Assembly (NCBI GenBank): GCA_964187785.1
Contig: OZ076409.1
Span: 37,202,001-37,266,000 of the forward strand
Length of the DNA: 64,000 nt
Direction of reading: 5' to 3'
Origin: Amphiscolops sp. MND2022
Lineage: Eukaryota
Shown: positions 2,832 through 64,000 of the stretch, piece after piece
How the letters are laid out: each line of letters starts with the position of its first letter
How positions within the stretch are numbered: position 1 is the stretch's first letter
Program-made: the position numbers and the translations under genes
Notes under the pieces: generated by a model
What the model was told of the DNA's origin: nothing
Seen by the model: only the letters and a program-made list of their open reading frames with translations
Database searches by the model: none

Positions 2832-3944
2832 AAGCGAAGCGGAGCGACGTGCCATATGGCCATGCTTCAATGTTGCTACTTGGCGAAGGGAGCGAAGTGA
2901 CCGAGCCATACAACAAATATGCTGACCTATTCAATAAAATCAAGTTCCATACATATTGGCTGTAACAACACCGAATGAAGAATCACCGAATAGATTATAC
3001 CGATTAGCGCTTAATTTTGTGTATAGCATAGAATAATTTCCCATAATCCAGTACAAAATCTGTCAAAAATGGGACGAAATCTGTCTAAAATGGGACGAAA
3101 TCTGTTTACAATGAGACGAAATCTGTGTGGGACGAAAGCTGATAAAAGTGGGACGAAATCTGATAAAAATGGAACGAAATCTGTTTGGGACGAAATCTGT
3201 CAAAATTCGACGTGAGACGAAAGCTGCCACATTCATTTCTTTGTTTTGGCTTGGTCTGGCGAAAATCAATGAAAAATACGGTTTCCTAAAAATTTTCCCA
3301 AAATTTGAGCTTGCATGATTCTAACCATCATTCGGAGTTCAACTAGCACGACGTTTAGTCGAACTGTCTAAATTTCTACTATATATGAACTGATTGCGTT
3401 TCAATACGTGATTGAATAGCCCTTAAGAGACTATCACAGGACGATGCCAAAATTAATCTCACTCTGATTATGGACGCCAATCTCTTTTAAAAGGAAGCGT
3501 CAAAGTTCATTGAAAATTATATATTTCTCAAAACTAATCAAAAAATTGTGTCGAAAGCTAGACAACAAGAATAGTTTCATTAACTTCTTCCAGCAAATCA
3601 GTCATTTAATCAGCGCTGCTTGAACTCAACAAATGTATTCTTTTCTAAATTGAAAACCTAATTTGATCTTGGTAGAATTTGAAAGAGTAGCATACTTATT
3701 AGTGCGACCAAAAAGACCTCTGTTATTTTGGAGTCAATTTTGGATTGTATTTACTTCATTATTTTCTGTGAAGTACAATTTTTATGTTTAGCTATAGCAA
3801 TATATTGACACCGGAGAAATTGTTGAGGCAAAATGTTTCCTGGAAAATTTTGAAATTTTCATATTTATTTTTATTTCAATTTTCTTTTGATTTAATTTCT
3901 TTCGTAATAGATGTTTTTTATTTTGGATGAATATATTGTTTTAG

Positions 3945-4162
3945 ATTGGAAACATGTTTATCAAGCAGAGGTCTTTAGTGATTTCTTTGCTCTATGGCTT
4001 CTTTGACTCTTCCGGGTCAGTAGCGATGGTAGTGAAGATGTTCTACGATTTCGGGGTTCCAGTCAGACTAATCTTCTACGGCTGGGCTGCTTGCTGTGCT
4101 TTTCTCCTCATCAATGCCCTCAAGATATTACCCTCTGGAAAAGTCTCTTGGCCACCCACTAA
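3945..4162 (+). CDS. SLC43A3: SLC43A3-like exon
   Basis: ttag|att ... aa|gtaag; IGNMFIKQRSLVISLLYGFFDSSGSVAMVVKMFY matches the SLC43 hallmark 'RSTIITLYNGAFDSSS'. Confidence 0.92.
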
Positions 4163-6238
4163 GTAAGAAACACTAATTTTTTCTCGATTGAACACTGAGT
4201 TTTTCCCAATTTGGATACTTTTTCAAATTATTTCAGGTATTGTATGTAATTAAAATGTTTTTGCTAATGTTCGATCAATATGCGATGAGATTGGAACGGA
4301 AAACTTCGACATGAATTTCTGATCAAGAAGTCGGTTGTTATTTTAATATTAGATCAAAATTTAATTTTCAACATTTTTGGTACCTTTGAAGTTCCGATAG
4401 AAGCATAGCTGTGAATGTGTAGGCTAATAAGATACTTTTCGGATCCCTTGTTGATTTACTGAATGAATGACTTTCTATGGACTGGAATTTCACATGCGGT
4501 GATTCCAAAGCGTTACGAAGATAAATCAAGATACACTATGGTAACAAAGAGCTCGAGACAGCTAGTTAATATCACCAGCGAAACCTTCAATTTGCGCATT
4601 TTTCAGGACAGGCATTTGAAAAAAAATTCCAGTAGGAAAAGTTTCTCAAATTTTGTTACAGAAAAAAACAATATTTTCTGTTTTGGAATCGAATGAAATT
4701 TTGAAAACTTATCTCAAATGGTATTTTGGGATAATTTGAAGCTTGACCTTTTCTTCCGCAGAATCTCAAATTACCTGTGAGACGACAAAACTTCAATTTG
4801 AAATATTTTCAACTTTGACACCGTTTTCTAACTTTCAGTGTAAACACTTTTCTCATAATGTACTTCCTTTAAAAATGAACGGCAAAAAAAGTCACCAATG
4901 ATCCTTGTATCAATGGACGTTTTCAACAACTCCATCATAACTTCAATGTGTGGCTAATATTCGAGTACTTTTTTCGAGCCTTCACTGCTCTTTCAGACTG
5001 TTCTTGTTCTCCTTGACGTTTCAGTCATCGCAGTATTCATCGAATGATACTTTGATTGAACTTGGACATTTTTCTTAGACTAAAACTACTGAACTAAAAA
5101 GAATGATATATATAATAAATTAACTGGAAGAGATTTCTAACAAACCCCCATACTCTTATTATGGCGACCAACGTGGGCCAAATGATTGTTCTTTTCATTC
5201 AGTGAAATGACCTCTCCGAGTTCGTTCCCGAGAAGTTCAAGTGTTTCTTCTCAAAGTGCATTTAACCGACCTTTTGAACGTGTTGAACATTTGAGAGACT
5301 TATCAAGGTAGTCATCAAGTCTTCAACATTTGTTTTCATACTCGACATAATCAACTTCAACACAAGTTCATTAGCTGGAAACCCTCTCGCTAAGACATTT
5401 AAACAACAAAGTCCATAGAACTTCCGAGGAATATGCATTTCGATTCACAGTTTTAAAAGTAAATCAAATTTAAAGGAAAAAGTACTTCGAAAATAATTCA
5501 ATGCATCTCTAAACAAGGCGGGTAATCCCAAATACAATATTAAATCATTGAAGTGTCGATGGGGATCTACCAGAAATCCCTACATCTGGATTAAATAAAC
5601 TCGTTTCTTCCGGTACTTTCTTCAGTTCCAACTGTTTGAAACTATTTGAAGTTCTCTTCAACCCTGTTACATTTTCAATTTCTACTGGCTGAAGATATTT
5701 CAGTGCCCAATCTTTTCATCCTAATGACCTTGTAATGTCCCAAGTCCTTACTATCAAAAAACTGAAAAGAGTTACTTTTTGATAATTCAGAAGTTTCCAC
5801 TTCCAATGAAAATTTCCATTTGTTTCCTTGTTTTGTAAAAGTGGAACATAATTTTTGAAAGACCGTGCATTTTTAGTGTTGTATGGATCAAAGTTCTAAC
5901 CCATACAAAGTTTGAAAGACATCAACTTCCCCTTCTCGTAATGAACTTGTTCCAATCTAAATTCCTGGCATGCGTTTGTTTTTCCTGAATATTTCAAACA
6001 GTATTCCAGTGACGGGCACTTTTTGATGACGATTCGTGAATTTTGCATGTAATATTCAAATCATATCTACAACAAAGGTTTATTATGGACAGAAAAAGTA
6101 GTTATCATGTATTGCCATCTTTCAAAAAGATGGATTGTAACTAATTTTTATAGCGGGCATTAAGTTTTATCATAGTTTTGGAAGTTATCAGAGTATCGTA
6201 TGACTGAAATCACACAAAATAGGTTAATCTTTTGACAG

Positions 6239-6525
6239 GGAATTCTTTGACGTGGAGGAACTCAGAAAAACCACCCCCGACAATGTTTCCAAAGCGAAAA
6301 GTCCCAGTTCGGGCCCTAACAAGCTGGCAACAAAAAACAATTTCAGTATGGTTTTCAACGAAGACCCTCGATTCAAGTCGTACGCTGATGTCAACATCGG
6401 CTTGCAGACCGAGAACTTTGGCAGAGCATCTGCCAGTGTCGTGAACTTGAACTTGCCCCTTAGAGAGGCCCAGTACTCCTCTCACAGTCAGACGCTTGGA
6501 TCCGCCAGTCTGAGCAGATTCCCAG
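6239..6525 (+). CDS. SLC43A3: SLC43A3-like exon (large hydrophilic central loop)
   Basis: gacag|g ... cca g|gtacc; phase 2 in and phase 1 out fit both neighbours; open frame EFFDVEELRK...LSRFP. Confidence 0.75.
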
Positions 6526-14940: not shown

Positions 14941-15085
14941 GTTACGCAAAATTTGCAAATTTTTCCAATGTTTAACGTTTTTATGCAATTAATCAAATTG
15001 TCGTCACAATTCGGGATTGTGACGAAAATTTGAATATTTGCATAAAAACGTTAAACATTGGAAAAATTTGCAATTTTTGTGTAAC
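14941..15085. repeat. ~145-bp near-perfect palindrome
   Basis: ~70-bp arms gttacgcaaaatttgc...gtcacaat / attgtgac...gcaatttttgtgtaac around a 5-nt loop. Confidence 0.9.
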
Positions 15086-20320: not shown

Positions 20321-21351
20321 GTGAGTATAGCAACACCCCCTCACAATTCCACCTCTTGGGTCAAAGTAAAGAAAATGAAATGTAGGAAACAGCATCAATT
20401 TCTATTTCCAGGGTAAAAGGAGAATAACGTCTAAAAAAAGACCAACCCTCGAACTAGAAAATACCAATATGACTACAGATAGTGGAAATACATCAAAGCA
20501 CACATCAGACTGGCAGACCACACAGCTAAAAGCTGGGGCTCTATGTACCAAATAAGGATCTTCAAGAAGAATCCCGTACTGAGGTCCCATGCGATCCCAT
20601 GCATGGCCATGTCACTTTTAAGCATGGAATTGCATGGACCATGCATGGACCATGCATGGCCATGCATGGTTTTGAGGGGAAAAGCAATCGCAAAAACGCC
20701 CGAAAACGACTTCTAGAAAGGCAATGAAACACCTGACTTAATTAAAAACTTATCTATGGTCTTTTCTGAGATGAAAAAAAATTCAGTAAAAATATTCAAT
20801 TCAGAAACAACGTTAGAAATGTGCCTTCAGAGATTGGGTAAAAAGCATATTGGGGGAAAGCCACAGGACCTAAAATTAGGAACTTGACGAAACTTCTTAT
20901 ACACAATCCTCATAAAATGTAGAACAATTGTGGAAAGTTTGAGCAAAATCGTCTCGATAGTTTTTGAGATTATAATGAATTTGAGATGAAAAATCGCAAT
21001 TTCTAACATTTTTGTAATCATTTTTGGCTATTTCTCAGATCCTATAAATACGAAATTGATGAAATTTTATACACACGATCCTCATAAGGTGTGTCCACCA
21101 CAGACAAAAAACGACACACTAGCAACGAGAAATATCGAATAAACAGTCAAATAGAACAAAGTTACGCGCCAATCCATTCAAAGAGCACTGTTGGATGTCT
21201 ACCGAGGTCCTTCGGAAAGTCACATCAGGACCACGGAAAATCCGTTTTTTCTAGTCTCGGCTGGCCGACTGAAACAGTCGACACTAGCGGGGCTACCAAC
21301 GAGCAGGTGCAAAATAAAGCCCCATTCACAACGAAACATTCATAAGACACC

Positions 21352-22597
21352 TGTCATGCCTGCCAAGCATGAAGGAAATAAATGAACCCTAAAATACCAA
21401 TTCATACATCAAACTCCCTAAAATACAAATCATCATGTAAATACATTACAGTAGTTTAATTGCCGAACAATACAGTTGAACACATAACGACTGAAACCAA
21501 CAAACATCCATTCATGTTATTGTGCATCGTTTAAACATCCATTCATGTTATTGTGCATCGTTTAAACATCCATTCATGTTATTGTGCATCGTTTAAACAT
21601 CCATTCATGTTATTGTGCATCGTTTAAACATCCATTCATGTTATTGTGCATCGTTTAAACATCCATTCATGTTATTGTGCATCGTTTAAACATCCATTCA
21701 TGTTATTGTGCATCGTTTAAACATCCATCCATGTTATTGTGCATCGTTTAAAAACCAGGACTGGAATATCCAGTCATTGCAGATGATTTATACATGTACG
21801 ACTGAAACAATCAGTCATCAGCTATCGTGATAGTGCATCATTTAACCATTGTTTTTTACACTTTTTATATTACATGTAAAGTATTACTAGAATACTCAAT
21901 CATTTCACAACATTTCGTCTATTTATATCAGTAATTAGTGCAGTATCCATTAGTAAATTACTTCAAAACGATATTTAAAGCAGTCACTATGATGATAAGG
22001 ATACACGGTAGTAAAGCCTCAGTTTAAGAGGTAATTGAGTTAATCGAACACGGAAATGACTGGTGCTTGCGGTCATACTACATCAAACAAGAGTAATTAA
22101 ACACCTATTATCACCCGCGACGACTGGTAGTTGCAGTCGTCAAGTGCAATTAAACAACAATTAGTAGATTGAACGTACGTCATTGGCTAAAAGGAAAGGT
22201 GCTAACACACTTTTATAATTACTCAATCGGGCAATACCAAAAACACACGAATTGTAACTTCTGACGAGACAAGTTGCTTACTACCGTACCTTGAAATCAT
22301 CAATTCTTACTTAAACCTAACACACTTCAATTCAAACTTAAAGTCTCCAACCTCTTTATGGTAACTACCAGATCTCAAAGTAATCAAAATAGACAGACAG
22401 AAAACGGAACTATGAACAGGTCAAGCGATAGTGAAAGCGAAACTAGTTTCCCTGATGTCTTATCGAGAGACCAAATTGCAGACCTTGACTCTGAGGACGT
22501 ATTAACCAGGCGTCAGAATAACAATAACTATGACATAGATCATCGGTTTAATGAAATAAATAGACAAATCGGAGACCTTACGGACATTGTACTTAGT
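21352..22597 (+). repeat. 5' LTR (3' end truncated by the internal deletion)
   Basis: Matches 24539-25790 except for a 4-bp duplication near 22175. Confidence 0.95.
21502..21749 (+). repeat. 8 x 31-bp tandem array inside the 5' LTR
   Basis: Unit aaacatccattcatgttattgtgcatcgttt; last unit has one substitution. Confidence 0.97.
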
Positions 22598-22603
22598 CCT
22601 TAG

Positions 22604-23729
22604 TTAACTACCAACCCCCCCCCCAAAATTACTACTAAAAGCTCCTCGCATGATCTTGTGAGATTCATTACCAGGTTTTGAAGTCGTCGCAACGCCAGAG
22701 GAAGATGGAGCACCAGATGGAGCCACACTCCGTTCACCTAAGTCTGATGGCGGCACGTCCGAGTCCACACATGTCCGGCGACTCTCAAACCCAGCTACAC
22801 TGCCAGCGACAGATGACGAGCGCGGAAGAACATCACCCACACAAGGAGAGAATGACGATTGACCGAGTTCCTGCAGTGCCCCCTTCAGTTTTCCAAGGAA
22901 CTCCTCAACGGCGAGAGCACCCACCGTTCCTAGCTTGCCAAGGCTTGATTCAACAGCTGCCTTGACCCACTGTTGAATTTCTCGTTCCACACGTTGGAAC
23001 AACTCCGTGAACTGGCCCACAATGACGTCAGCCCGAACGTTGGCATCTACAAAGCAACCAACAATTTTCAGCACCTACTTAGAACCGAACGAACGAAGAC
23101 GCCTATCATCAACTGAGTAGAGAACAGCAACCGTATACTGCAGGCGCTGGTATGGAAGAAGACCCCCCCAACATATAACTTAGCTTAACAGTAACCGCAA
23201 ATGCACCCACCGAGATGCGAAGAGAGGAAAGCATCCAAACGACGCAAGATGGGAGCAGAATCCAAATCAGCACTCCCGGAGGACCCAGTAGCCACGGAAG
23301 ATCGAAACTGGCGCAAGTAGGAGACTAACTCGGTCATGTTGACATCAGCTACAAAAATAGTGAACAGTCTCAACAACAGAGATGACATAGACGCTCCAGT
23401 TGTTCTGGGATCAGCATCCACGGAACGCAACCCCACGACAGAATAACTCAGGCCTAGCGCTTATGGAGAAAGTAAATGTAAAACCAGTACTTACCAAATT
23501 CCTGGGAAAGCACGACATCCAACAAGCAACCCAGATCCCCAACGTTTGACGCAGAAACCCGCGCAGCGAACTGGCAACACTGATTGTTCTCCATCAGCAC
23601 TGCAGATAAATCCAGTCCACTCCCACTCTCATCTAACGGGGGATTACCTGCAGCCATTTGGTCCTCGACTTCAGCAACTAATGCAGAGAGCTCACCACTA
23701 AAGGATAAAACTCCTTCTTCATCTGACAT
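22604..23729 (-). CDS. Putative spliced antisense gene of unknown function inside the LTR element
   Basis: Exon 23729-23495 (MSDEEG...SQEF), 41-nt GTAAGT...TAG intron, in-phase exon 23453-23211, then a further 156-codon frame at 23074-22604 whose junction is unresolved. Confidence 0.6.
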
Positions 23730-24688
23730 TGTCGGAGCGATAAGGTAACACACGACACGATCGGGGATAACAATAAAATGGCGACGGCGACTCGACTGCA
23801 ACAGCTCATTCTTCCATTTCTTATTGTTATAGACTGATCACCTATATCAATATATAATGGACACCTAACCCACCCTATCAAACGGTCTACCCAAGTAATT
23901 ACCGGACATTCGCGGAATCATATTCACGACTCCACCCACAGGATATCAAATGCTAATCAGCAGAGAGAACGCAGTCAAGTTTTCCCTAGCCATAACAGTA
24001 CATATATTCCCTCCCGAGTTAACCGCCTAATCGATACCCGGAAAATACAGGACTAACTGGGAAAAACAAAAATCGCACTACCTTTATTATTGTGGAAGAA
24101 TGAGCAACACCAACGGTTGACAAAACGAAGATGGATAAGGACAAGTATAAACAGGACCAAATTCAATTTTAAAAGCAATAAAGCCAGCAACTGACTCACT
24201 CTACAACAACGCAACAAATCAATCAACTGCCGATGATCGATGAAAAGTTGCTTAAACAAACATTACACTCTATGCGCACTAAACGGATGACGTGGCTGTC
24301 AAACTGTTACTATAAATAAACTTCAACTTCCGACTACCCACTGTTTGCCTACCTCACCTTGTCCATTCATGCTTCCGAAAGTCTCAGCCACTACATTGCC
24401 ACCCACACGTTCTTCCATACCTCGCACGCCACTTCAGCCGCTGTTCAATTCTCAACTCAACCACCTACTACCACTCAACTCAGTCGTTCACCTTTCCCAT
24501 TACCCCTACAGCTCGCTCTCTCTCAAAAAGGGGGGGAATGTCATGCCTGCCAAGCATGAAGGAAATAAATGAACCCTAAAATACCAATTCATACATCAAA
24601 CTCCCTAAAATACAAATCATCATGTAAATACATTACAGTAGTTTAATTGCCGAACAATACAGTTGAACACATAACGACTGAAACCAAC

Positions 24689-24936
24689 AAACATCCATTC
24701 ATGTTATTGTGCATCGTTTAAACATCCATTCATGTTATTGTGCATCGTTTAAACATCCATTCATGTTATTGTGCATCGTTTAAACATCCATTCATGTTAT
24801 TGTGCATCGTTTAAACATCCATTCATGTTATTGTGCATCGTTTAAACATCCATTCATGTTATTGTGCATCGTTTAAACATCCATTCATGTTATTGTGCAT
24901 CGTTTAAACATCCATCCATGTTATTGTGCATCGTTT
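24689..24936 (+). repeat. 8 x 31-bp tandem array inside the 3' LTR
   Basis: Same unit, same count and same variant last unit as in the 5' LTR. Confidence 0.97.
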
Positions 24937-25540
24937 AAAAACCAGGACTGGAATATCCAGTCATTGCAGATGATTTATACATGTACGACTGAAACAATCA
25001 GTCATCAGCTATCGTGATAGTGCATCATTTAACCATTGTTTTTTACACTTTTTATATTACATGTAAAGTATTACTAGAATACTCAATCATTTCACAACAT
25101 TTCGTCTATTTATATCAGTAATTAGTGCAGTATCCATTAGTAAATTACTTCAAAACGATATTTAAAGCAGTCACTATGATGATAAGGATACACGGTAGTA
25201 AAGCCTCAGTTTAAGAGGTAATTGAGTTAATCGAACACGGAAATGACTGGTGCTTGCGGTCATACTACATCAAACAAGAGTAATTAAACACCTATTATCA
25301 CCCGCGACGACTGGTAGTTGCAGTCGTCAAGTGCAATTAAACAACAATTAGTAGATTGAACGTCATTGGCTAAAAGGAAAGGTGCTAACACACTTTTATA
25401 ATTACTCAATCGGGCAATACCAAAAACACACGAATTGTAACTTCTGACGAGACAAGTTGCTTACTACCGTACCTTGAAATCATCAATTCTTACTTAAACC
25501 TAACACACTTCAATTCAAACTTAAAGTCTCCAACCTCTTT

Positions 25541-25862
25541 ATGGTAACTACCAGATCTCAAAGTAATCAAAATAGACAGACAGAAAACGGAACTATGAAC
25601 AGGTCAAGCGATAGTGAAAGCGAAACTAGTTTCCCTGATGTCTTATCGAGAGACCAAATTGCAGACCTTGACTCTGAGGACGTATTAACCAGGCGTCAGA
25701 ATAACAATAACTATGACATAGATCATCGGTTTAATGAAATAAATAGACAAATCGGAGACCTTACGGACATTGTACTTAGTTTAACTAATCAGTTAGCCTC
25801 CGTTAATGGAGAAGGGAACAGACTTAATGCGGTTACTACCAATACCAACAGTCGTTCCGACA
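25541..25862 (+). CDS. LTR-embedded gag-like N-terminal ORF (107 codons); reads out into the flank to 26053; second copy at 22358
   Basis: MVTTRSQ...RFNEINRQIGDLTDIVLSLTNQL (coiled-coil-like); start resembles MPSTRRQ of the gag at 59535. Confidence 0.7.
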
Positions 25863-26019: not shown

Positions 26020-26100
26020 CAAAATTCTAATCCGATGTTTGACGTGGCGCTAGGCATGTGACATGCCTAGCGCCCTGTCAAACATCGGATTAGAATTTTT
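26020..26100. repeat. ~80-bp palindrome
   Basis: aaaattctaatccgatgtttgac..ggcgctaggcatgt-g-acatgcctagcgcc..gtcaaacatcggattagaatttt. Confidence 0.9.
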
Positions 26101-28065: not shown

Positions 28066-28772
28066 AAGCCATTAACAACTCCTGTCCTTCACGTGCAGAT
28101 ATGGACACCCTTGTTACTACTGTTTTATATGTAAACTATTGATTACAAATGAAGTTTTGAATGGGCAGACAAAAAATTCTTCATTTTTAAATAACGTATA
28201 AGGTTATACCATCAGAATTGACTGTAGGCACTCAAGCGCTTCTAATCGAAAAAAAAACAGACTTTTTCCATGATTTTAATTGTTGCCACTAACGCTCAGC
28301 CTTGAACTGTTGTTTCATATTGTAAAATGTAGAAGCTCGTCAAATTCACTTTCGCATTTTTTGACAAGAGAAAATTCGGTGCTTATGCAAATGTTCAATA
28401 TCTTGAAACCGTCAGATCCTCGATTTTTATAAAGCCCCATATTTACATTTTCGGGATTGTTGCGATTGAAACTCTATAGAGTCTCAATCGTCTTCCAAGA
28501 CCAAAGTATAGATAAGATAAGATAACAATCTCCATGCCAATGTCAATAACTCCACTAATCTCAAAAAAGCATGAATAAACAAGATTTATCACTTGAATAC
28601 CAACTATCTGTCGAAAAAGAAGATTTCTTGTAATAATAAATTATTATCTTTCAACAAGTTGATTGCACTTTGAATTTGAATTGAATGGAATTGGTAACTC
28701 ATTTACAGATGTTGTCTGTGATTGCAACGATGGAGCAAGTTGATCACGCAGAATGAGTACTTTTTCTCTCTT

Positions 28773-29188
28773 CTAGGTACTAAAGTTCAGCATCCGTTTG
28801 TTGGCGGCAATTTTCTGCCGAATAGCGTTGTCTTCTTGGATCATCTTCAAAAGCTGCTCGCCTGAAATTGCACGGGTGCTGAAACTCAAAAGACGTTTTC
28901 CCATGGGCGCAGGTACCCTCTCAGGATAATACCCAGCCGCGCCCACCGCATGGTCCGATGATCTCTTGGGGGGTGCCTGCGGGGCGAATTGGCGGGTGTC
29001 GGGTGCACTGCGGGTACTGAAACTCAGCATTCTCTTGTGGGGCGACACAATCACGAAAGGGTTGTAGACGTCCCCTCGTTCCACGGGCTGTTCGGCGAAG
29101 TGTGGGTTCTTCACGTAGTAGCCGTTCGACGTTTCTATAAAGTCATTCTCGAAGTTGTTGCGGAATTGGGAGTCGTCTGGGGCTTCTC
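28773..29188 (-). CDS. Neuropeptide precursor, last coding exon (xL[S/N]FST peptides)
   Basis: ttttag| acceptor at 29190-89; KR-MLSFST-R, KR-LLSFST-R and KR-MLNFST-stop separated by non-repetitive spacers; GC-richer than flanks. Confidence 0.85.
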
Positions 29189-30433
29189 CTAAAATGAAAG
29201 CAGTTTTCTAATTTTCCTTAGGATTCTTTTTGAGTATAGAATCTTATATAACACGCAGCTGTTCCCCTACACATTATAAACACTCGGTTAATGGTTATAG
29301 AAATTCTTTTTGTTTTCTATGGCAAGAACTTGAAACTTATTCTCACGACTTTTGTTGTTTTTGACTCAAAAATATCTCCAGTAGTGGGAAATGTAAACTT
29401 AGCAAAGAAACCTTTCGTTTCAACCACAGTTATACTAAATTTTCCTTGCTTAGCCATGACGATGAGACTACATCTCAGTATAGTTTGTGGTCAATGAAAC
29501 AGCATTTTTTGTTTCTTGAGAAGGTGTGATATTAAAAAGTTTGACATTGAAAAGTGTGACTATGCTCCTCGTACTGACAGCTCATCACAGTCTCATGATA
29601 ACCATCGAACCTGGTTGGAAATAATATTCCGACCATTTCGTTAGCCCGTGAATACGCTTAAATGAAGCTACCTAGTTTGAATTATGATATTTTTATCAAG
29701 CTAGAATGATGAAGCATTGGATTGCAATTCAACCACTTTGACAGAAATATTCGTTTCTTCAAAATAAATTTGGCTATAAACCGATGTCATAAAAATTTTT
29801 CCAAAAAACATCATATGCAATAAAAGCTCCTTCAAACAAAAAAGATGTTTGTTCTAAGTAAGACTATTTATTGTGCTATTCAAAGAGAAATATTGGTCAC
29901 TCGAGCTAATAGATATTCTTTTGTTCATTTCAAAAAACATCTCAATGAAATTCGATTTGTCTACTGAAGAGGAGTCAAGACAAACATCATTAGAAAAAAA
30001 GCTGCAAACAAAAGTTTTCCCCACTATTATTTCATTGTTTTTCTGTATAAATCACTTCAGAAAATGTATGAAATTTCCATCATCAAATCATTTTTCATTC
30101 ATTTGAGCACTTAAGCTTGGCAAATATAGTCATTGATTACTATATGTAGACTTTTTGAAAGTCGAGGCTGGTCTTTTCAACCAGTCAGCACTTCAAAGCT
30201 AAGATCGCTCCGGAATGAAGACTATCTTGATAAACGTTTCAGAGAACTTGAGATCAATATTTTGAGAAGTAACGCCTATAAAAAGCAATTCTAGAGCTAT
30301 CGTTCCTTCAAACTTTCATCGAAGGAAGTCTAAAATGTTTCCGTTCTCATAACTTTACAAGCATGAATTTTTTCAAAAGTCAAAAAACTCAATTTCCAGC
30401 GTTGGGAAAAGTCAAAGCTTGGCTTCCATTAAT

Positions 30434-40802: not shown

Positions 40803-43800
40803 TGTTGTCAACCGTCGTTATATATTGAAGTATACCTAGAGGGCAAACTCTAGACTTGAAACTATTTATGTTGTTACTATCATAGAATCTGATATTTAGT
40901 CTGGCTGAAGTACCTGCTGCCTATAACATTATGAGTATTAAGCAAGACACACTCAGTAGCAAAAGATGGATCAGAAAATACAGTTAAATGCTAAACAATT
41001 TATTCACCTCAGAAGAGAATATATCATGGCGCAATCAGGCTAACGTCTAGCCAAGAACTTATTCAAGAATTCAGCCAAAATCCATCCAAGAATGGACGAT
41101 ACAAACAATACGCCACCAATGAATCGTGGCCGAACCCACCAGACGACGGAACAAGCTTCAGGCAGACTGCCGTTCAACGAAGCAACCACGAAAACAGGAG
41201 AACGGACTTGCACCCAAAAGCAAACCAAACCTATCTGGACAACTCCAATCAAACGTATGGTGGCGCAAGTACATCCAGTACATAACGATGACAAACATCT
41301 CAACTATGGTAAACTCAAAAGAACTTTTACCACAATACTGTGAGCAGCTACAAACCGAATTCAAAAACATATTGCTGTGGGCAATCGGGCAGAATGTACT
41401 TACGGAGATGATCAAAAGGGTAACGGAGAGAGAACCTAGCTTCCTACCGTTGTACAAACTGTATACATAATTCCGACTACACTACTCGCCAGAGAGAAAC
41501 GTACAACGCAGCCAGCTGAGCTGTTTTTTATTCAAAGGCGAATCAGCGGAGAAAACTGGAAAAGACTTTAGAAGTCGAAAAAATTTGCGTGTTTGAAATT
41601 GTCACAGTCGCAGAACTACTAGCATCGAATTTCCTACCACTTACAGGAGATTCTGCGAGCAACTATGAGCTGAAACAAAAATACGCAAAAGCGACACATC
41701 GGTCGAGGAAATAACAGGTGCAATACACGTACACATTTACGAGAAATTAAATGACTCACCAGAAACTGAAGAAGAGAAAAAAATCTGACATGTCGAAAAG
41801 AGAGAATTAAAGATTACCAGAGAACAGACAGAACGTAACATGAAATCCAGAAGAGTATACTGCAACAGATGCAGAGCACCAACTGGTCGCAACATCATGA
41901 AAGTCTCGTAAGAGGTCAAAAGTGCGGAAATTGCAGCAAAACTGGACATCATACTGCATACTGCCACTCAACACGGAAAATAATCCATATAGCGGAAACA
42001 CACAGCGTGGACGAGGACGAATACTTTCAATATACCAGAAGATCTGGGAGGGAGTTAACGGATTGTACCGCCGTTCTAAAGTACAACGCTATACAATAAC
42101 AGGTCAATCAAATTTATAATAAATACAGGATCACCAGTGCCTCTCATTCCGGTATCATAATTCAATAACATGACAGTAGTAAAACCGGTAAATGAAGATT
42201 ACCGGGATGTGAAAGATAATATAATGAAATTGGAGGGAAAAATCTTAGCAAATGTCCAACTAGACTATACAAAGCAGCAATTAGAGTTATTGATAACAAC
42301 CAAAAAAACACACGCATTACTCGGGCTCGATTGGATGGGAAAATTGGGGACCAGCCTCGAATCGGACAAAATCAACGCAAACATGAACCATATAAATAAC
42401 AACATTAATTCGGAGAACACATTAGACCGAAACATAGCGCCACTCAAACTTACGTTCAACAAATTGTTTACGGAAAATCAAACGGTAAAAAATCTGGAAG
42501 TGGACAATCAATCTAAAGATAAGGCAAAATTTGTTCAACAAAAATGTTCAATTCACTTTTAACCTGCAGTCGAAAAGGAAATCGACAAATTAAAAAACAA
42601 AGACACATCATCGATGATGCCAAAAATTTGGATAAAAACTGTTTTGCGAGTCTGCAGTAATCACCATTAAAAATACCATTCAGTAAAAATTGCTCTGAAT
42701 TATTATTGTTTTTAAAACTATAAAAAAACAGTGCAAAGAAACGCACAAATGCCTAATATGGAAGAACTGATATCGTGAAGATCCAGACAAAGAGCGGACG
42801 GACCGGCAGACGAAATATGGATATCAAAGTATGATCAAGATCACGCATACGGACAACTACAGCTCTCGAAACGAACAATGGACCTGTGCATTTTGCAAAA
42901 AGCGGAAGAAAATTTCCAGAGTACGACCGATATCTGAAAGAGTTCTACGGACTAGCCGACATATCAACAAAACTTAACGAAAAAAAAGTTGATCAAAATC
43001 TGGAAAACAAACACCCAGCTTGATTAGACGGTACTATATTAGTACCAAAAGGTTCTAAACACAAACACATAGACAAACTGAAAGACGTACTGACAAATTT
43101 GAATAAGCAGGATACAGATTGAGCGAAAACAAACCCGAACTATTCAAAAGAGAAGAAGAATGAATTGGACACAAAGTAGACCAGAACGAATCCAGACCGC
43201 TGCAAGACACAGTAAACGCCCTAGAAGAATTGAAAAGTCCCGAAAGCGAAGAGGTACTAAAATCGTTCCTAGCAACAATCCAATACCTGTCCAAACACAT
43301 TAAAAATCTCTCAACCCAGGCGGATATCTTGCGACAATTGCTCAAGAAAGCTAATCAAGGGAATTGGACGGAAGAATAAACAAAAGCGTTTAAAACTTGA
43401 TACAAAAAAGAACGGATATACCGTGTCTGGCACACTATAACTCAAATTCTTCGAACGTAATAACAACAGACGCTAGTGCGAAAAGACGGAGTGCCGCGCT
43501 GTGACAAGAACAACCGAACGGTGAATGAACACCGATCGGATTTGCCAGTCGTTTCCTTTCTGACACGCAAAAGAAATGCGCAATCAATGAATTAGATCTG
43601 TTATCCATAGTATGGGGACTAGACCTTAATCGTCTTACATCTATGGTAAAGCGATAAAGTTACTCACAGACCACCAATCATTAGACCCAATAGTCAAACG
43701 CAATCGATCAAACAAAACGTAGAGCGCACGGCTAACAAGATGGCCTGACCGATTACCACATTTCTAAATTAACATGATCCATATAACCGGTAAACACTTA

Positions 43801-46179
43801 TCATTGGCGGACCATCTCAGCAGAAACCAGTCCTCGTCACCACAAGCGGAAGACGCATACAAAACAGAAAACGTAATCAACAACATCCTATTGCACTACA
43901 AGTTTACAACCGAATGCCTTAGCAACCATTTCAACCAATCACAGCGCAGCATGACAATAACTAAGATGCAAAACAATTAACAAAATGACATAATACGAAA
44001 CGCGTGAACAAACCGCCATTGACTTCCTTATTACGACGCCAAATAGCTGTGCTGTACAAAAACCTAAAGAAATCGAAATGGATGTGAAAATCAAAAGCAA
44101 CTTTGAAACAATGGACCCATCTGCTGAAACCGAAAATCTAATCGGAAGATGGCGCGACACGGTCCCGCTCGGTATTTATCGTCAATTCGGCGGTTGCTGA
44201 AAAAAGTTCCACCAACCAAAAATCCTTCGAAACGGAAGAAGCATAGTCGAAGAACACTTACATCAAGCCGAAAGAAACCTCAAAAATAGAAACAATCGGC
44301 ACCAGGCTGAGGCTTTTAACCGCAAACGACATGGCATGAGCAATGGACCGTAGACCCATTGTGCGGAGTAGACCGTCAACAACAACAACCAGAAAAAGCA
44401 GAAGCGTCCGAAGAACAACCCGGGCCATCAGCATCAAGAAGAGGACAGACGTAAAAAGAGTACAAGCCGATGGAGGAGAGAGAGAGATAGAGTCGGACAC
44501 CGACCAACATCCATCGTCATTGGAGGTACCAGCAGTAAACTGAGCAACGTACAAGGGCGTCAAAAGCGTCCAATACAAAAAGATGGGCCTTGCACCCATA
44601 CTGAATGCTGAAGAACCGAACAGCTGGGACCTCAATAACGCAGTAAGCGAAACAGACAAATTTCTCCAAAGATCTCCAACGACTCGCACCTCCCAAAGGC
44701 ATTTGTTTGCATCGAACGCCAACAACAATACAATATGCCAGAATTTTTTATCACTTATAAAAAGAAACTTTCGACGGACAGATACGGCCTAGTGTTTTAC
44801 GAGGACCGTATTATCGTGGCCGAAAACCAGCGGTCAAAAGTGGGCCACCGCGCCAACAACAAGATGTCCCTAGCGGCCAGACAGTAAACCAAAGGAAGCT
44901 GGAGGCGGGCAAACGACGGTGAGATTTTCAAAAAGATTTCTAAATTTGAATGGCATCACAAAAACAATTAGGACGGAAAAGGCCAACGCGTTCGCGGCCA
45001 TAACGTTCAGAGAATGTTGCAAAAATAACACCAAAAAACCTATATAAGGAACACCGTACAATACAATCATGCCCAACGGGACTGGTCGAATGTGAAGTAA
45101 GAACACTAAATAAGACATTACTGACAAATATAAACGCGGGTGAAAAACTAAGCAAAGCCTTAGTCATAGCATTCAATGCTATGATGAAAACACTTCTTAC
45201 AAAAATAAAGAAATCCGCCTTTGAGATGCACTACGGCGGCGGACCGAACACCAAGATTAGCAATATTCTTAAACCCGATGTGTGAACGACATAACAGAAA
45301 CTTCAATTTCAGCAAAACAAGATACCCTGAAGTTATATTCATTCAATAGAGCTGGCGGTCCCTCTGACTAACTACCGATGAAACAGAAGAAAAGAACAAA
45401 GGGAGTTAGTAACTATTCAATTCTCTTCCTCGAAAAAAGACAACGAAACCAAAATTTGAAAGTGCCAACTCCGGTAAACCACAAAGAGCCATATCGGACA
45501 CTAAACATGCAACCACTACCTCTGAAAAAAAGTCCTACATAAAAACACATGATTAACCCTTTTGCTGAATTTATCCAGAAACCGAACCCAAAGGAACCGG
45601 GCCACGTGAACCAGACGGCCGATTCACCAAATTCCAAAGCTGTGCAGAAAACTTGAATCGGAGAGCGACTCTGGAGAACAAACGCCAACCCAACAACAAT
45701 CGAGAACCACGAAAGTAAATGACAGAAACTCAGCAGCATTGATCCAGTCGCCAACAGACACTAAAAAGAACGAACCTTTCGGAAGAGACGACCGAAGTTG
45801 ATCCAGAACAGACAGTGCTACGGTTCACCAATGGGTTCACCTCGACAACCGGACCAACACTAGGACAGCACTGGCCCAATAACCATCGAGGCCTAAAATT
45901 TGACGGATACGGAAGTAGACCGTGGCATTGAGAACAACAAAAAGCAAACAAAGAATTGAATTTATAAGACAAGAACGGAAAGGGAACTCTAACTTTAAAG
46001 AAAACTTTTACGGAGAGGAAGAAGAAATTGTGGAAAACAATTCAGAAATGGAAATGACTGAACTAGAACTACTTAACAATTCAATTTCAGGCACAGAAAG
46101 AGAACAATCTGCCTGAAGTACCTACTACTGCAACATAATGAGTACTAAGCAAGTGACACTCAGTAGCAAATAATAGATC
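40803..46179 (+). mobile_element. Decayed Ty3/Gypsy LTR retrotransposon
   Basis: LTR ends ...TATCA at 41026 then PBS-like TGGCGCA; broken RT (HAYGQL, FYGLAD), RNase H (TDAS, GFASRFL, TDHQ, ADHLSR) and integrase remnants; diverged LTR copy at 46110-46179; LTR start approximate. Confidence 0.9.
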
Positions 46180-58631: not shown

Positions 58632-59534
58632 TAGCAAATGCTTTTCCCAAACTGAAAACAATAACATGAATCATAGAGGGTGTCGCAGGCGGCCGCCTGT
58701 GACGGAATATTATACCAAGTCGGACCCGAAGACGATAACACTAATCCCGGACCGGGCGTACTGCCTATTTGAAAGAAAACTCCACAATACATTGATTATT
58801 TAATTAGCAATCTTCTCATGCACTTTAGTTCATTCATTTGTTGTTATTCTTTTCTACATGTAAATATGAAGTCTTATTAATGTGACTCAAGGTCACCTTG
58901 ACGGCATGAATAATCATATTTTGATGCAATCTTATGTAAATTAGTTGTTGAATTACATTTATAATAATGATGTGAACTAGTACCAAAAGGTGCAAAACGC
59001 TGTACAAGCAGTTAATTTGAATGATGTTGATAACAACAATAGAAAGCAAGATGGCTACTCAAGTGAAAGGAAACGCGTTCAACTGGTACGCTGCTGCCGT
59101 CCAGTTGACGCATAGTCACTTTGCTTCTATCCAATCACGGCGCTACATTTAGTTATAGTTCAATGCCGTCATGCGGACGTTAGGTCCGATTAGTTAACGC
59201 ATGTAGTATTAAACCTGTGGCAGCATGAAAATCACCGTTAACATGTAGTTGTTATTAACCAGTATGTTGCTTCTATTTATAGAACCTATGACGTGTAGTC
59301 ATATGACACCCAGTTACTATATTTAGAATTGTGATGTAATAGTTATTTTTAATAATGATGTCATTACTATTTTTAATCAATGACACCCCAAATACCGTAT
59401 GTCATGCTGTAGTTAGTATATATATGTAAGTTTCAAGTAATATTCAATCATTCAATACGATAATCTCAATACAAACCGTTCTGTTATACGCTTTCAATTC
59501 AACAATCTACTATTGAACAAAACCTTCTTTTGAT

Positions 59535-61331
59535 ATGCCCTCAACTAGAAGACAAAAGGCGAAAGAGAAACGTTCAAGGCAATCCGACATAATGTCTGAT
59601 ATTGAAAATCTAGATGTGATGCTCGGAAATTATTCAAACACTGAAATTAGGGACCAAAACGCAGTAGATGAAATAGAGATTGACCCTGAGTCAAATAGAC
59701 GGCATCAAGGTTTTAGCCATGAGGAAAGTAATTATAGGTCTCTTTTGAATGCAAATTTGAGTGAGAATAGTGAAGTTACAGTAGAAACCAGTAGAGCAAT
59801 CAGTTCGGAAATTTCTTCACAAATGTCAAGGAAATTGGAAGAAATGAAATCTGACCTAAATTCCCATATTATGGAGGTAATAAACTCTGCTATTGATGAG
59901 AAAATACTACCTAGCATCGAAAACGTCATAGTAAATCATAGGGAGCGCAAAAACACAAAGTTGGACCTTCGGTCAGATGGACGGCATCCGAGTAGAAACG
60001 TCCCTATGGACCAGACTTTGGACCTTGGGTCATATGGACGGCATAAAAATAAATTCAGCCAACAGGTCCAGGACTCAAGAGAGAATTTTCCTAGACTAAA
60101 CACAACAGTAAATAACCTTCCAAGTCATCAAATGGAATGTTCAGGAGATTCTGAACAGAGTGAAAATGAAGAAGGTTATGACATGGTGACAGGAGCCAAC
60201 CTTACTCCACATGTAGTCCCTGAATTTCTGACCGGACGTCCCACGCAGTCCCGAAACAAAATTCCCCATCAACAATGCGTCAATGATGACACATTAGACA
60301 CCACTCTCCCGGCACAAATTCCCTCAAACCCTATCAATGACCGGGAAACCCAACCCCAAACACCTTTAGACCCCATAAACAGACTTGCCGATGTCATTAT
60401 GGGAATGAACAACAAATCATCAGCGCAAACACTGATGGTACGACCAGTCAATACCGCCACACTCACATTTGATGGCAAATCTGAAAAATTTGAACTGTTT
60501 GAAGACCTCTTTCACACGGTGATAAAGATGCAACCCGAGATGACGGAAGCAATGAAAATTAATCATTTTCATTCACTGTTGCGCAAAAATGCCCTGCAAA
60601 CCTTCCGCAACATCAGTTCAGCAAATAGACAAACCTTAGAAGACGTACTAGCTGTGTTCCGTAGGAAATATGTCAAACCTGAATCCCAGGCAACTGCCAA
60701 ACACAAATGGCACAAATTGGTGTTTGACCCAAACACAATGAAATTGCCCGATTTTCTTGAGGAACTCAATCAGGGCGCCGAAAAAGCCTTCGGCGAACAC
60801 GCACAAGCCATGATTGACAGTCTGCTATACGCAAAACTCCCACCGAAACTCAAACGCTCAGTCAACATGGCGCGATTAGAGAATGCCACCTACGAAGAAA
60901 TTGTCACTCATCTCGAACGAGAACTGGAGCTGAATGGACTTGAGGAAGGTGACGACATTCCCGTTCCCACAATGTCAACAGCCCCGACAGCCACACGCCC
61001 GGGACAAGGACTCCTTTCATCAGGCATTGACCCAGGAATAACTTGCAACTACTGCAAAAAACCTGGACATGTCAAAGACGATTGTCGAAAACTAAAACGA
61101 AAGGAAGAGCAAAAACGCAATGAAGGCTCGGGTACCAAAAAAGAGTACCCAAAGTGCCCGACTTGTGACAAAACCAATCACCCGGCGGAGAGATGTTGGA
61201 AAGGCGCTGGAGCCCACCTCAAGCCCAAAAACCTCAAATTGGATAGTCCAAAGGAGGACGACGCGACCAGTAGTCGTGATGACCCTACCAACAAAACTAC
61301 CACTTCTATCCTTAAAAACTCAAAAAACTAG
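59535..61331 (+). CDS. gag: Gag, 598 aa, two CCHC zinc knuckles
   Basis: FDGKSEKFELFEDLF capsid-like region; CNYCKKPGHVKDDC and CPTCDKTNHPAERC. Confidence 0.95.
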   Translation: MPSTRRQKAKEKRSRQSDIMSDIENLDVMLGNYSNTEIRDQNAVDEIEIDPESNRRHQGFSHEESNYRSLLNANLSENSEVTVETSRAISSEISSQMSRKLEEMKSDLNSHIMEVINSAIDEKILPSIENVIVNHRERKNTKLDLRSDGRHPSRNVPMDQTLDLGSYGRHKNKFSQQVQDSRENFPRLNTTVNNLPSHQMECSGDSEQSENEEGYDMVTGANLTPHVVPEFLTGRPTQSRNKIPHQQCVNDDTLDTTLPAQIPSNPINDRETQPQTPLDPINRLADVIMGMNNKSSAQTLMVRPVNTATLTFDGKSEKFELFEDLFHTVIKMQPEMTEAMKINHFHSLLRKNALQTFRNISSANRQTLEDVLAVFRRKYVKPESQATAKHKWHKLVFDPNTMKLPDFLEELNQGAEKAFGEHAQAMIDSLLYAKLPPKLKRSVNMARLENATYEEIVTHLERELELNGLEEGDDIPVPTMSTAPTATRPGQGLLSSGIDPGITCNYCKKPGHVKDDCRKLKRKEEQKRNEGSGTKKEYPKCPTCDKTNHPAERCWKGAGAHLKPKNLKLDSPKEDDATSSRDDPTNKTTTSILKNSKN

Positions 61332-64000
61332 ATTTGCCACGACTCCATATTAATGAAAAATTACGCATCAGACAATATATAATATCTGACCCTCCTACTA
61401 TATACTATACAGAATATTACTCTTCTATTAAAGAAAATTCATCAGCTGACTGGCAGCAGCAGGTGAAGCATTTGCCTACTCACTTACACAACCCGGACCT
61501 TCAGTCCGACAGACAGCACTCTAATACTACGACCATTCGCCCCCTTCCCCTAATCGATAACTATAACCCATATTACCCTGACCCGGACTTCGGATTCGAC
61601 CCCTATTGGGACATTCAAATCTACAACCAACATCAGTTACACTTCTATCAAAACTTTACCAAAAACATTGCCGATATCGAACATGATCAACCTCACATTG
61701 ATCAGCTCCTAAACACAAAACTATCCACGGCCTCCGTTGACCCCTGGCAAAATGTGTCGATTAAGACCAATTCACCAATCCAGGAGGCAATAACCGAACA
61801 ACTTCCACACAATGGACCTTTGGTCACATTGACGGCAACAGTGGAAGAACGCTTTGTGAATACGCTGATCTCACGAAACGGTGAACCTGACTACGTCCCG
61901 TTGACGACCAACTTGGGACTCAAATACAAACGACGGATGCTTTACTTCCCCATGGATTTTGGCGAACTAACTTTAGATGGCCTTGTAGACACGGGAGCCC
62001 TATCTAGCGCTATCCCAGAAGCCGATCTACGTAAAATCCGATTGTTAGCCCCTCAATCAATAATTAAAGAGGGCCCGGCACCCAACTTCCAGATTATGGT
62101 AGCCAATGGACAGCTGGAGACTCCAAAGAGCACTGTTGAACTCAAATTCGAAGTCGGGGACATCGATTTCCACGAGATCTTCATTGTTATGGAAAAACTC
62201 ACAAGTCCGTTAATTGGTCTCTCGTTCCTGCAACGGAACAATACCATACTGGACATGCGTCAAGGAGTTTTGAACTTCCCTTTCTTCTCCATGCAACTGA
62301 AAACTGCTGACCACAAGTACACTAACGTCATGGAACCTATCTGTGCGCGGGAGGATATAACTATTCCCCCCAACGACAGACATATGGTTTCCATGTTCTC
62401 ACAACTCTATGACGACACAAACGTCACTGGAATTCTTCAACCGAGCAATGACCTTGCAGAAGATGGTGATATAACCTTCTGCGCTGCTCTAGTCACACTG
62501 ACCCAAGGTCAGGTATCAATTCACGTCAACAACTTCACTGACCAACCGTTCACCCTCAAAAGAGGTGCTCACATTGCCAATTTCTCTGTCCTCACACCAG
62601 AGCAGATGAAATACGTCAAACCCATTGATCCCGTGACAACTTGGCACCTTTTGAAGGATAACCCGGAAAATGCTGCCTATTATGCCAGTAGCCTGATCAA
62701 ATCCCCGAAAACTAACGATGATAGTGAGAACTACTGGTTCCCTACTCCAGAAGAACCAGGAGATCCTCAAACTCATACACCCATACAACAAAGAATCCTT
62801 AGGGAACTACGAAATCTCCAAGATTTAGAGAAACTCAACCCTCAGGATGACCCTGAATCGCGGAAACAATTTCTTGCTAACTTTGACTGGACAGACTCTA
62901 CGCTGAATCCAGCCGAAATTGCCCAAATTGAAGAATTACTTGTTGAATTTCACGACATTTTTGCACGACACCGTTTTGACATAGGTATGAACGAAGATTT
63001 CAAGGTCACTTTGACCCCTAAAGATGATTCCCCTGCCTATAGTCAAAGCTTACCTACTCCTATCAACCTCAAAGAAGATATCCTTGTAGAACTAGCACTA
63101 CTACATCGATATGGGATTATAACAACTCTCCCATTTTCCAAATATGCAAGTCCCATCTTTGCCCAGAAAAAACCTAACGGCAAACTTCGCCTCCTGGTTG
63201 ACCTCCGAAAGATCAACAACCTGATTTCTGACGATTACATCAACAACAACCATCCTGTCAGCACACTAACGGATGCTGCGCAGCACATGGCAGGCAAACG
63301 ATTATTTTGCAAACTTGATTGTTCTCAAGCATACCACTGCCTTCAGATGGCTGACCAGAGGTCAATCGAGATGCTGGCGTTCAATTTTGCCAGCAGAACC
63401 TTTGCCTATCGCCGACTTGCCCAAGGTCTAAGCAGAGCGCTGTCCGCATTCTCGAGCTTTATGCGCGAATACCTGGATAAAGTGATAAAAGCTGACCAAT
63501 GCGCTCAGTACGTAGATGATATTGGGATAGCTGCAAACGACGCCACTCAGCTCATCAACAACCTTCGAGCAACGTTCCAGTGCATCAGGACCGCTGGTCT
63601 CAAACTAACGATGCACAAGTGCCATTTCGGAGCCAAGGAAATCGACTTCCTGGGACGTACCATCACTCCTGAAGGGGTGCGGCCACAACGACCCAGGGTC
63701 CAGAATTTCTTGGAAAAGACCAAATTCCCTAAATCCAAGAAAGCACTTCAAAGATACTTGGGATTCTTGAATTACTACCGTAACTACATACCAAGGCTCT
63801 CAGAAAAACTCACACCGTTCTTCAAATTATTGAAAAGTGATGCCAAAGTCATGGTGACACCCGATCTGTTAGCGAAATTCACCGAGATCAACAAAGCTCT
63901 TGACCGATGTTGTGAACTGGCACTCAAACAACCTCTACCCGATAAACAGATAGCCCTGATGACGGACGCTAGTTTTTCGGCAGCAGGTTATGCGGTTCTC
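61316..64000 (+). CDS. pol: Pol (protease, dUTPase-like domain, RT, start of RNase H) in the -1 frame; 3' partial
   Basis: Open from 61316; LVDTGA at 61982, KLDCSQAYH, YVDD at 63509, MTDAS at ~63959. Confidence 0.95.
61322..61328 (+). other. -1 ribosomal frameshift slippery heptamer A AAA AAC
   Basis: X XXY YYZ in the gag frame directly before the gag TAG, inside a 16-nt gag/pol overlap. Confidence 0.85.

Follow-up and report, generated by a model that had tools for sequence, protein, structure and literature searches.

Antisense extra ORFs have been known for decades in plant elements and are also found in fungal ones; their origin and function are unknown, and one of them carries a transposase 28 domain (PMC7264820). 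In Retand clusters, 97% have antisense TRP28 ORFs (PMC11963269), and Retand shares with Grande and RIRE2 the aORF-3R arrangement, namely a Gypsy element with a long region between pol and the 3′ LTR holding a conserved antisense ORF, for which a role as a nuclear DNA-binding regulator has been proposed (PMC7264820, PMC11963269). Outside the retrotransposons, the closest system is VANC/VANDAL of the Arabidopsis MULEs, where an element-encoded accessory protein with introns binds short family-specific motifs that lie along the element, mainly in non-coding DNA, and rapidly co-diverges with them (PMC5735166). The hAT transposase Hermes binds its sub-terminal repeats through several BED domains (PMC10368747). 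LTR elements have also acquired extra regulatory or enzymatic genes, some of them spliced or antisense, such as the antisense HBZ of HTLV (PMC11963269) and the ORF3s of rotifer elements.

The gene described here belongs to the known class of Gypsy antisense extra genes, from which it differs in its intron content, its likely origin and its candidate self-target sites. Our literature search, with Repbase, Dfam and supplements lying outside its scope, found no published description of this system. The region of departure, positions 22604–23729, lies in a 64,000-nucleotide stretch of the Amphiscolops sp. MND2022 genome (contig OZ076409.1), hereinafter the window. Our main reading, to which we give a rough probability of 0.52, is that this region holds exons 1–3 of a seven-exon antisense gene of a Ty3/Gypsy retrotransposon, the product of which is likely a dead hAT transposase that would bind dyads in its own element as a dimer and likely promote the element's transcription.

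The antisense stretch is housed by a 4.5-kb LTR element at 21352–25862 of the window, the landmarks of which are:

21347..21351, plus strand: left copy of the 5-bp target-site duplication (TSD; ACACC) flanking the element
21352..22597, plus strand: 5′ LTR, 99.7% identical to the 3′ LTR, its last ~80 bp removed by a deletion
22589..22597, plus strand: deletion junction with a 9-bp microhomology
24523..24538, plus strand: polypurine tract (PPT)
24539..25862, plus strand: 3′ LTR (TG...CA), holding the first ~105 gag codons
25863..25867, plus strand: right copy of the TSD

These are the hallmarks of Ty3/Gypsy elements, i.e., LTRs with TG...CA ends, a TSD and a PPT, along with a primer-binding site (PBS) that is present in the full copies and deleted in this one. 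We take the PBS to resemble tRNA-Leu. Relative to a sister copy of 15.46 kb (L031+L077), ~11 kb is missing from the window copy. The missing stretch starts shortly before the 5′ LTR ends, stops 3′ of pol and comprises the 5′ LTR end, PBS, gag, pol, a spacer and antisense exons 4–7 (850 of 1,099 codons). The sister copies have gag, pol and the full antisense gene, and an exact search of the 1.07-Gb genome finds the deletion junction a single time. The window copy is thus a single dead copy without a PBS, a unique deletion derivative, and could encode at most a 249-residue fragment lacking the zinc finger described below. The suggestion in the initial annotation that the gene was kept although gag and pol were lost fails on the same ground, as one deletion took exons 4–7 and the PBS along with them; a non-autonomous family keeping the gene is ruled out by the uniqueness of the junction.

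Both LTRs contain a 31-nt tandem array (21502–21752 and 24689–24939), the copy number of which differs among sister elements. The gag gene begins within the LTR (ATG at 22358), its segments lying at 22358–22597 and 25541–25862 and, in a second Gypsy element of the window (clade B, see below), at 59517–60183; both LTRs thereby repeat ~100 (clade A, that of the window copy) or ~200 (clade B) gag codons, and the PBS lies inside gag.

On the minus strand between the deletion and the PPT, the alignment of related copies delineates the following features:

23824..23842, minus strand: non-coding block identical in 7/7 subfamily copies shown, a candidate antisense core promoter or start site
23495..23729, minus strand: exon 1, 235 nt from the ATG; acidic (18% D+E, 1% K+R); dN/dS 0.10–0.20
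23349..23494, minus strand: intron 1, 146 nt, phase 1
23211..23348, minus strand: exon 2, 138 nt; dN/dS 0.03–0.24
23047..23210, minus strand: intron 2, 164 nt, phase 1; includes the TAG at 23077–23075
22672..23046, minus strand: exon 3, 375 nt, coding for a helical segment followed by a Ser/Pro-rich linker; dN/dS 0.11–0.17
22598..22671, minus strand: 5′ remnant of intron 3, with its donor GT at 22671

A search of the genome with the region returned 24 full-length matches at 97–100% identity and partial matches at 66–85%. The bases on which the initial annotation had built its gene are all present: the ATG at 23729, 78 codons plus one base, the donor GTAAGT at 23494, the 41-nt stretch up to a TAG, the G/GTGGGT boundary at 23211/23210, the TAG at 23077–75, the open frame at 23074–22604, and the LTR element with its deletion and PPT. 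Its exon model, however, is mostly wrong when set against the other copies and covers a quarter of the gene. The proposed 41-nt intron is the 5′ part of intron 1, as its acceptor AG is found in 10/20 aligned copies and the conserved acceptor is at 23349/23348; correspondingly, the 243-nt exon cannot stand, since its extra 105 nt are in frame without a stop in only 5/20 copies. The acceptor of the possible 32-nt second intron is likewise not conserved, the conserved one being at 23047/23046. The TAG said to interrupt the frame thus exists, but lies in intron 2 and interrupts no coding sequence; it is present in 22 of 23 near-identical copies, the remaining one being unscored as its alignment anchors failed. 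Antisense introns are therefore conserved, as the proposed check on other copies had sought, although the acceptors first chosen are not. Finally, the Ser-rich "tail" turns out to be an internal linker of a longer protein.

The full gene in related copies has seven exons and six GT–AG introns, and codes for 1,099 aa. Its exons in the sister copy L031 are as follows:

2220–2454: exon 1
2601–2738: exon 2
2903–3277: exon 3
3451–4013: exon 4
4147–4635: exon 5
4807–5017: exon 6
5169–6457: exon 7

Of the 240 intron ends in 20 copies drawn from several subfamilies, 238 are canonical (GT or AG). In 13 of these 20 the gene is open throughout, with exons that differ in length only by multiples of three and introns of variable length; exons 1–3 are open in all 21 scorable near-identical copies. 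For exons 1–3, dN/dS is 0.12–0.19 against five other subfamily copies (dS is saturated for a sixth), and over the whole gene it is 0.04–0.10 in the three unsaturated pairs. Codon comparison thus indicates strong purifying selection, and the conservation of the intron ends suggests that the antisense transcript is spliced. The core claim of the initial annotation is accordingly borne out by conserved splice sites and purifying selection: an LTR retrotransposon carries an antisense accessory gene that codes for protein, contains introns and differs from gag, pol and env. Introns antisense to the genomic RNA survive retrotransposition. In clade A, a 1.8-kb non-coding spacer (L031:6460–8320) with several of the dyad sites discussed below separates the antisense stop from the pol stop, its counterpart in clade B being ~220 bp. 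Additionally, the pol region of L031 (minus strand) contains a 249-aa sense frame, shared by all clade A subfamilies examined, that overlaps gag in its 3′ half, with pol starting in another frame.

Homologues of this gene are antisense to pol in every Gypsy family that we examined. One of them is carried by the second Gypsy element of the window:

58681..64000, plus strand: clade B Gypsy element, with its 5′ LTR at 58681–60183 (eight GAC-N5-GTC sites), gag at 59517–61331 and the start of pol

The homologous antisense gene of this element lies beyond the end of the window, in the locus L043, where the LTR pair is 100% identical. It has five exons, codes for 1,304 aa and is open in 8/8 copies. 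Introns 4–6 of the clade A gene correspond to three introns of its clade B counterpart, with the same phase and the same alignment column (one within 1). Pol in L043 shows the Pfam order protease–RT–RNase H–integrase, and the clade A integrase, 3′-most as well, is 44% identical to that of L043, as against only 15–19% for the antisense core. Between the protease and RT, the clade B pol (window 58681–64000 and L043) additionally shows a dUTPase-like domain that passes the Pfam cut-off (PF00692, E=1e-6). In all 18 further loci the integrase is found on the opposite strand beside the gene, with RT also within the stretch in 15 of them, and in most copies the gene occupies a conserved antisense position between pol and the PPT, as in the aORF-3R class. 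Gene and integrase distances are strongly correlated (Spearman 0.84, computed on the 24 of 31 loci that passed length filters) and their trees are concordant at the deep splits, with one discordance among the C families; the antisense core evolves 3–5 times faster than the integrase. The families are abundant and young, their LTR pairs being 97–100% identical, and exon queries returned 1,031, 4,489 and 8,016 first-look candidates, which are not copy numbers.

A profile search of the protein collection recovered 425 clusters with E<=0.001, of which 150 were listed, all of them shorter than 440 aa; the relatives among these listed matches are exon-sized frames, and the ten that were looked up have no protein name. 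One matching cluster is identical to the Amphiscolops sp. MND2022 genome, and another, whose likeness to anything scored here is only 26–31%, may come from a second genome or family. Among the candidates scored in the collection none is a longer or spliced homologue, which is weak evidence. A distant, degraded Gypsy element (L205+L206:13958–14918) carries two minus-strand frames (153 and 193 aa) beyond its pol that are possibly another antisense gene, and is enriched in CCG-N4-CGG.

The 249 aa encoded by exons 1–3 have an acidic start, helices predicted by eye and the Ser-rich linker; they match neither a Pfam model at cut-off nor the clade B N-termini. Exon 4 encodes a C-x2-C-x16-H-x5-H zinc finger with conserved cysteines and histidines, which compares with Pfam zf-BED at E=0.09 and with Atlas zf-BED clusters at 0.81–0.83, a lead only. 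Exons 4–5 were modelled on a natural read-through sequence that retains an in-frame intron; the model is of low confidence (pLDDT 52, ~70 over the exon 5 strands) and displays an RNase H-like β-β-β-α-β-α-β topology. The top Foldseek match of this model in the PDB is full-length Hermes (369 columns, prob 0.96, E=2.3e-3), with three further Hermes chains among the best 14 and no match at E<=0.001. With VIA-align, Hermes superimposes at Z 6.5–7.0 over 103 residues (rmsd 3.2–3.4, trimmed rows), but unrelated RNase H-like folds, Pelota and actin-like ones among them, score equally well. The structure search of BFVD recovers RNase H-like folds, with a hAT-domain protein in ninth place and no match at E<=0.001. 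For exon 7, the model (pLDDT 47) gave no structural match, and none of the 54 exon-7 homologues matches the C-terminal dimerisation domain PF05699. Pfam runs on 12, 54 and 44 proteins yielded nothing at cut-off for the antisense gene, the six alignments searched against PDB sequences (four of exons, two deeper) gave no match below E=0.4, and profile comparison with the genome's own hAT transposases (50 PF05699 loci) detected no similarity. By eye, the exons follow what we take to be the hAT motifs in order, with the catalytic acids missing; in keeping with this, the DDE triad strand positions, which we placed from presumed hAT motifs, show no invariant acidic residue, and no TIRs are seen. On the strength of the structural model we regard the RNase H-like core and hAT ancestry as likely, and given such ancestry a loss of catalysis is very likely. 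The protein also has basic NLS-like tails.

The LTRs and internal DNA of these elements contain spaced palindromes, located in the window element at:

21487, 21757, 21798, 21883, 22056, 22120 (span 21487..22140): six AYGACT-N9-AGTCRT sites with <=2 mismatches in the 5′ LTR
22667..22687: dyad site across the exon 3/intron 3 border
24467: dyad site before the PPT
24674, 24944, 24985, 25070, 25243, 25307, 25835 (with the preceding, span 24467..25855): dyad sites in the 3′ LTR

The 31-nt LTR array begins inside the right arm of the site at 21487. Clade A LTRs have 3–5 such palindromes with conserved arms and varying spacers, and pooling all A sites leaves arm conservation barely higher (84%) than that of the spacer (81%). 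We defined AYGACT-N9-AGTCRT (<=2 mismatches) on the LTR and scored it outside the LTR: in the window family, the 12.9 kb of internal sequence has 13 sites versus 1.65 expected, a count reached by 0/200 third-order Markov sequences, and the enrichment peaks only at spacer 9. The same motif counts 13 in A3, 10 in A4 and 15 in A7, as compared to 0–6 in clade B and the window background. An unbiased scan of ~1,600 trimer dyads per element, in which backgrounds reached p values of 2e-5 to 9e-4, recovers other palindromes in other families: GAC-N5-GTC in B1 and B2 (36 and 32 versus ~4; p 2e-22 and 3e-19), GCC-N6-GGC in five B3 elements (10–14 versus ~2; p 2e-5 to 3e-8), GAC-N11-GTC in A7 (18 versus 3.7; p 8e-8) and, in the L159 family, ATG-N15-CAT with the same 21-bp geometry (21 versus 4.3; p 8e-9); for A1–A5 the scan does not pass correction. 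Ten loci were newly fetched, six with an LTR pair around the gene and one not intact. Among them, four of five intact C elements show GCC-N6-GGC (14–15 versus ~2), with a mixed pattern in C1; D1, D2 and D3, scored on a fixed window, show GTC-N5-GAC (11, 6 and 7 versus 2–3, D2 and D3 being weak), and the LTR-bounded D4 has no significant palindrome. A control Gypsy fragment also has 8 CCG-N4-CGG versus 1.2, which tells against a simple site code.

The sites extend into codons: the gag/pol frames of B1 and B2 have 20–23 GAC-N5-GTC versus 3.6–4.2 after synonymous shuffling, and the B3 gag-pol frames lack the B1/B2 sites and have 5–7 of their own versus ~1. At 14 pol-frame positions from B1, 13 scored in B1, 7 in B2 and 0–1 in B3 and C. 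Median spacing is 240–630 bp across LTR, gag, pol and the antisense gene, with density highest in the LTR (in B1, 8 in 1.5 kb versus 30 in 12.9 kb; in A1, 7/20 in the LTR). Since the arms barely covary (2 of ~45 positions at p<0.05), we read these as DNA dyads rather than RNA hairpins, the hairpin reading being unsupported in view of the near absence of compensatory changes. Finger sequence is not by itself enough to foretell the palindrome, as C1 and C2 have identical fingers and different top palindromes; likewise, the C fingers resemble those of B2, and the C sites those of B3.

Private dyads that run through the whole element and differ between families within one genome imply a reader that is dimeric and encoded by the element itself. 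Covariation cannot name it, because integrase, Gag and the antisense gene are co-inherited; nonetheless, the finger, the transposase-like core and an evolutionary rate 3–5 times that of the integrase make the antisense protein the best candidate, and we think it probable that it binds the family dyads. We envisage that an intron-bearing hAT element once inserted antisense between pol and the PPT, that its introns, invisible to splicing of the genomic RNA, would have survived reverse transcription, and that the gene may be transcribed from near the 3′ LTR. Its catalytic residues would then have decayed with DNA binding retained, and each family would have gathered matching dyad sites. The site density in the LTR and the acidic N-terminus favor a protein that activates transcription or shields the element from silencing; the acidic N-terminal segment, for which the window's exons code, might, at just short of even odds, recruit host factors to either end, anti-silencing being a leading candidate function. 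The CpG observed/expected ratio in the flanking DNA is 0.9–1.0, which makes VANC-style DNA demethylation unlikely; without CpG depletion there, a protein that counters silencing would likely be directed at histone or small-RNA pathways. More tentatively, and at somewhat less than even odds, the lineage may have domesticated an intron-bearing hAT transposase as a self-recognition system, in which the protein of each family would coat that family's copies at a private spaced palindrome, even within gag/pol codons, shielding or activating them against host silencing.

The same protein on the same dyads could instead act on the cDNA, coating the pre-integration complex for nuclear entry, protection or target-DNA tethering. 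The spread of sites throughout coding DNA at the above spacing, unlike the mainly non-coding VANC sites (PMC5735166), the multimerization of hAT proteins on many sub-terminal repeats (PMC10368747) and the basic NLS-like tails would suit such a role, but the LTR holds the densest sites, as expected of a promoter factor, and an acidic, disordered N-terminus would better fit transcriptional action, making this unlikely. The binding evidence would equally serve a self-repressor that limits copy number or timing, and antisense transcription can itself feed silencing (PMC7264820); however, a fast-evolving core with sites that turn over between families bespeaks a race with the host or between families, and abundant families with near-identical LTR pairs are hardly those of a self-limiting element, so that we consider repression distinctly improbable.

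Two further alternatives concern the reader of the dyads and the origin of the gene. The dyads might be read by the integrase, Gag or a host factor, with the antisense protein doing another job such as Rev/CERV-like RNA export or the poisoning of host hAT transposases; all element genes are co-inherited, finger sequence and site are not one-to-one, and the half-sites resemble the LTR ends (TGTC/GACA). Yet different sites accompany integrases that are 78–87% identical, a host factor would not switch its site by family within one genome, and the lack of hairpin covariation also tells against this improbable division of labor. That the gene is a captured host passenger, a possibility raised in the initial annotation, could draw on its introns and on exons 1–3, which, lacking Pfam or clade B matches, could be a later host-derived addition. 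This reading is largely refuted for exons 4–7 and very improbable overall: dN/dS is 0.04–0.24 across the gene and its exons inside the elements, all homologues examined sit beside pol and are inherited with the integrase at the deep splits, the relatives among the matches listed are unnamed exon-sized frames, and the protein has a transposase-like look.

If the antisense protein is indeed a dead hAT transposase on its own dyads, it differs in several respects from the systems it resembles. Unlike the Retand TRP28 ORFs, it lacks PF04195, with no match at E<=1 for any exon, and unlike those of Retand, Grande and RIRE2 it is 1,100–1,300 aa long with 4–6 conserved introns, the word "intron" being absent from PMC11963269; moreover, it goes beyond the plant ORFs in having a recognizable finger, a predicted RNase H-like core and candidate target sites. 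Motif enrichment along the element is shared with the VANC system, the exceptions here being D2–D4. Unlike VANC, however, the carrier is a retrotransposon, the motifs are spaced palindromes rather than tandem 9-mers and also occupy coding DNA, CpG is not depleted, binding and anti-silencing are predicted, and the protein likely derives from hAT, VANC being MAIN-like (PMC13547354). The predicted order of finger, helical segment, RNase H-like strands and long helical C-terminal region recalls hAT transposases such as Hermes, as well as ZBED/DREF, DAYSLEEPER and CGGBP; it departs from active hAT transposases in having no conserved DDE, PF05699 match or visible TIRs, and from the latter group in its proposed domestication by a retrotransposon rather than a host. 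Cer1 reportedly also carries an accessory gene, CERV, in an LTR element. Neither CERV, HBZ nor the rotifer ORF3s are known to be transposase-derived, "transposase" being absent from PMC5408684, and unlike env-like ORF3s the present gene is antisense and matches no env family.

A likely hAT origin would thus be offered here for a gene of this class, and the conserved multi-intron structure and candidate sites make its function directly testable. If the protein binds its family dyad, it would represent a transposon domesticating another transposon's enzyme and a possible retrotransposon counterpart of VANC, i.e., a VANC-like counter-defence that arose independently from a DNA-transposon enzyme. 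It would also mean that one genome offers many natural protein–site pairs, a ready-made library in which the DNA-binding proteins are related and their sites have diverged. With thousands of candidate loci in the 1.07-Gb genome, the gene may help explain the expansion of the lineage, and its exons will be mistaken for those of host genes in annotation.

Elsewhere in the window, 171-bp direct repeats (91% identity) at 48861–49031 and 54016–54185 enclose a T-rich stretch of 5 kb that contains several short frames, and 41000–46000 is strongly A-rich; both are probably other decayed mobile elements and show no match to the Gypsy pol. Near-perfect, MITE-like palindromes are found at 26021–26099 (79 bp) and 14941–15085 (145 bp). 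A 144-aa open frame with splice-like ends on the minus strand at 28760–29190 is probably a host exon.
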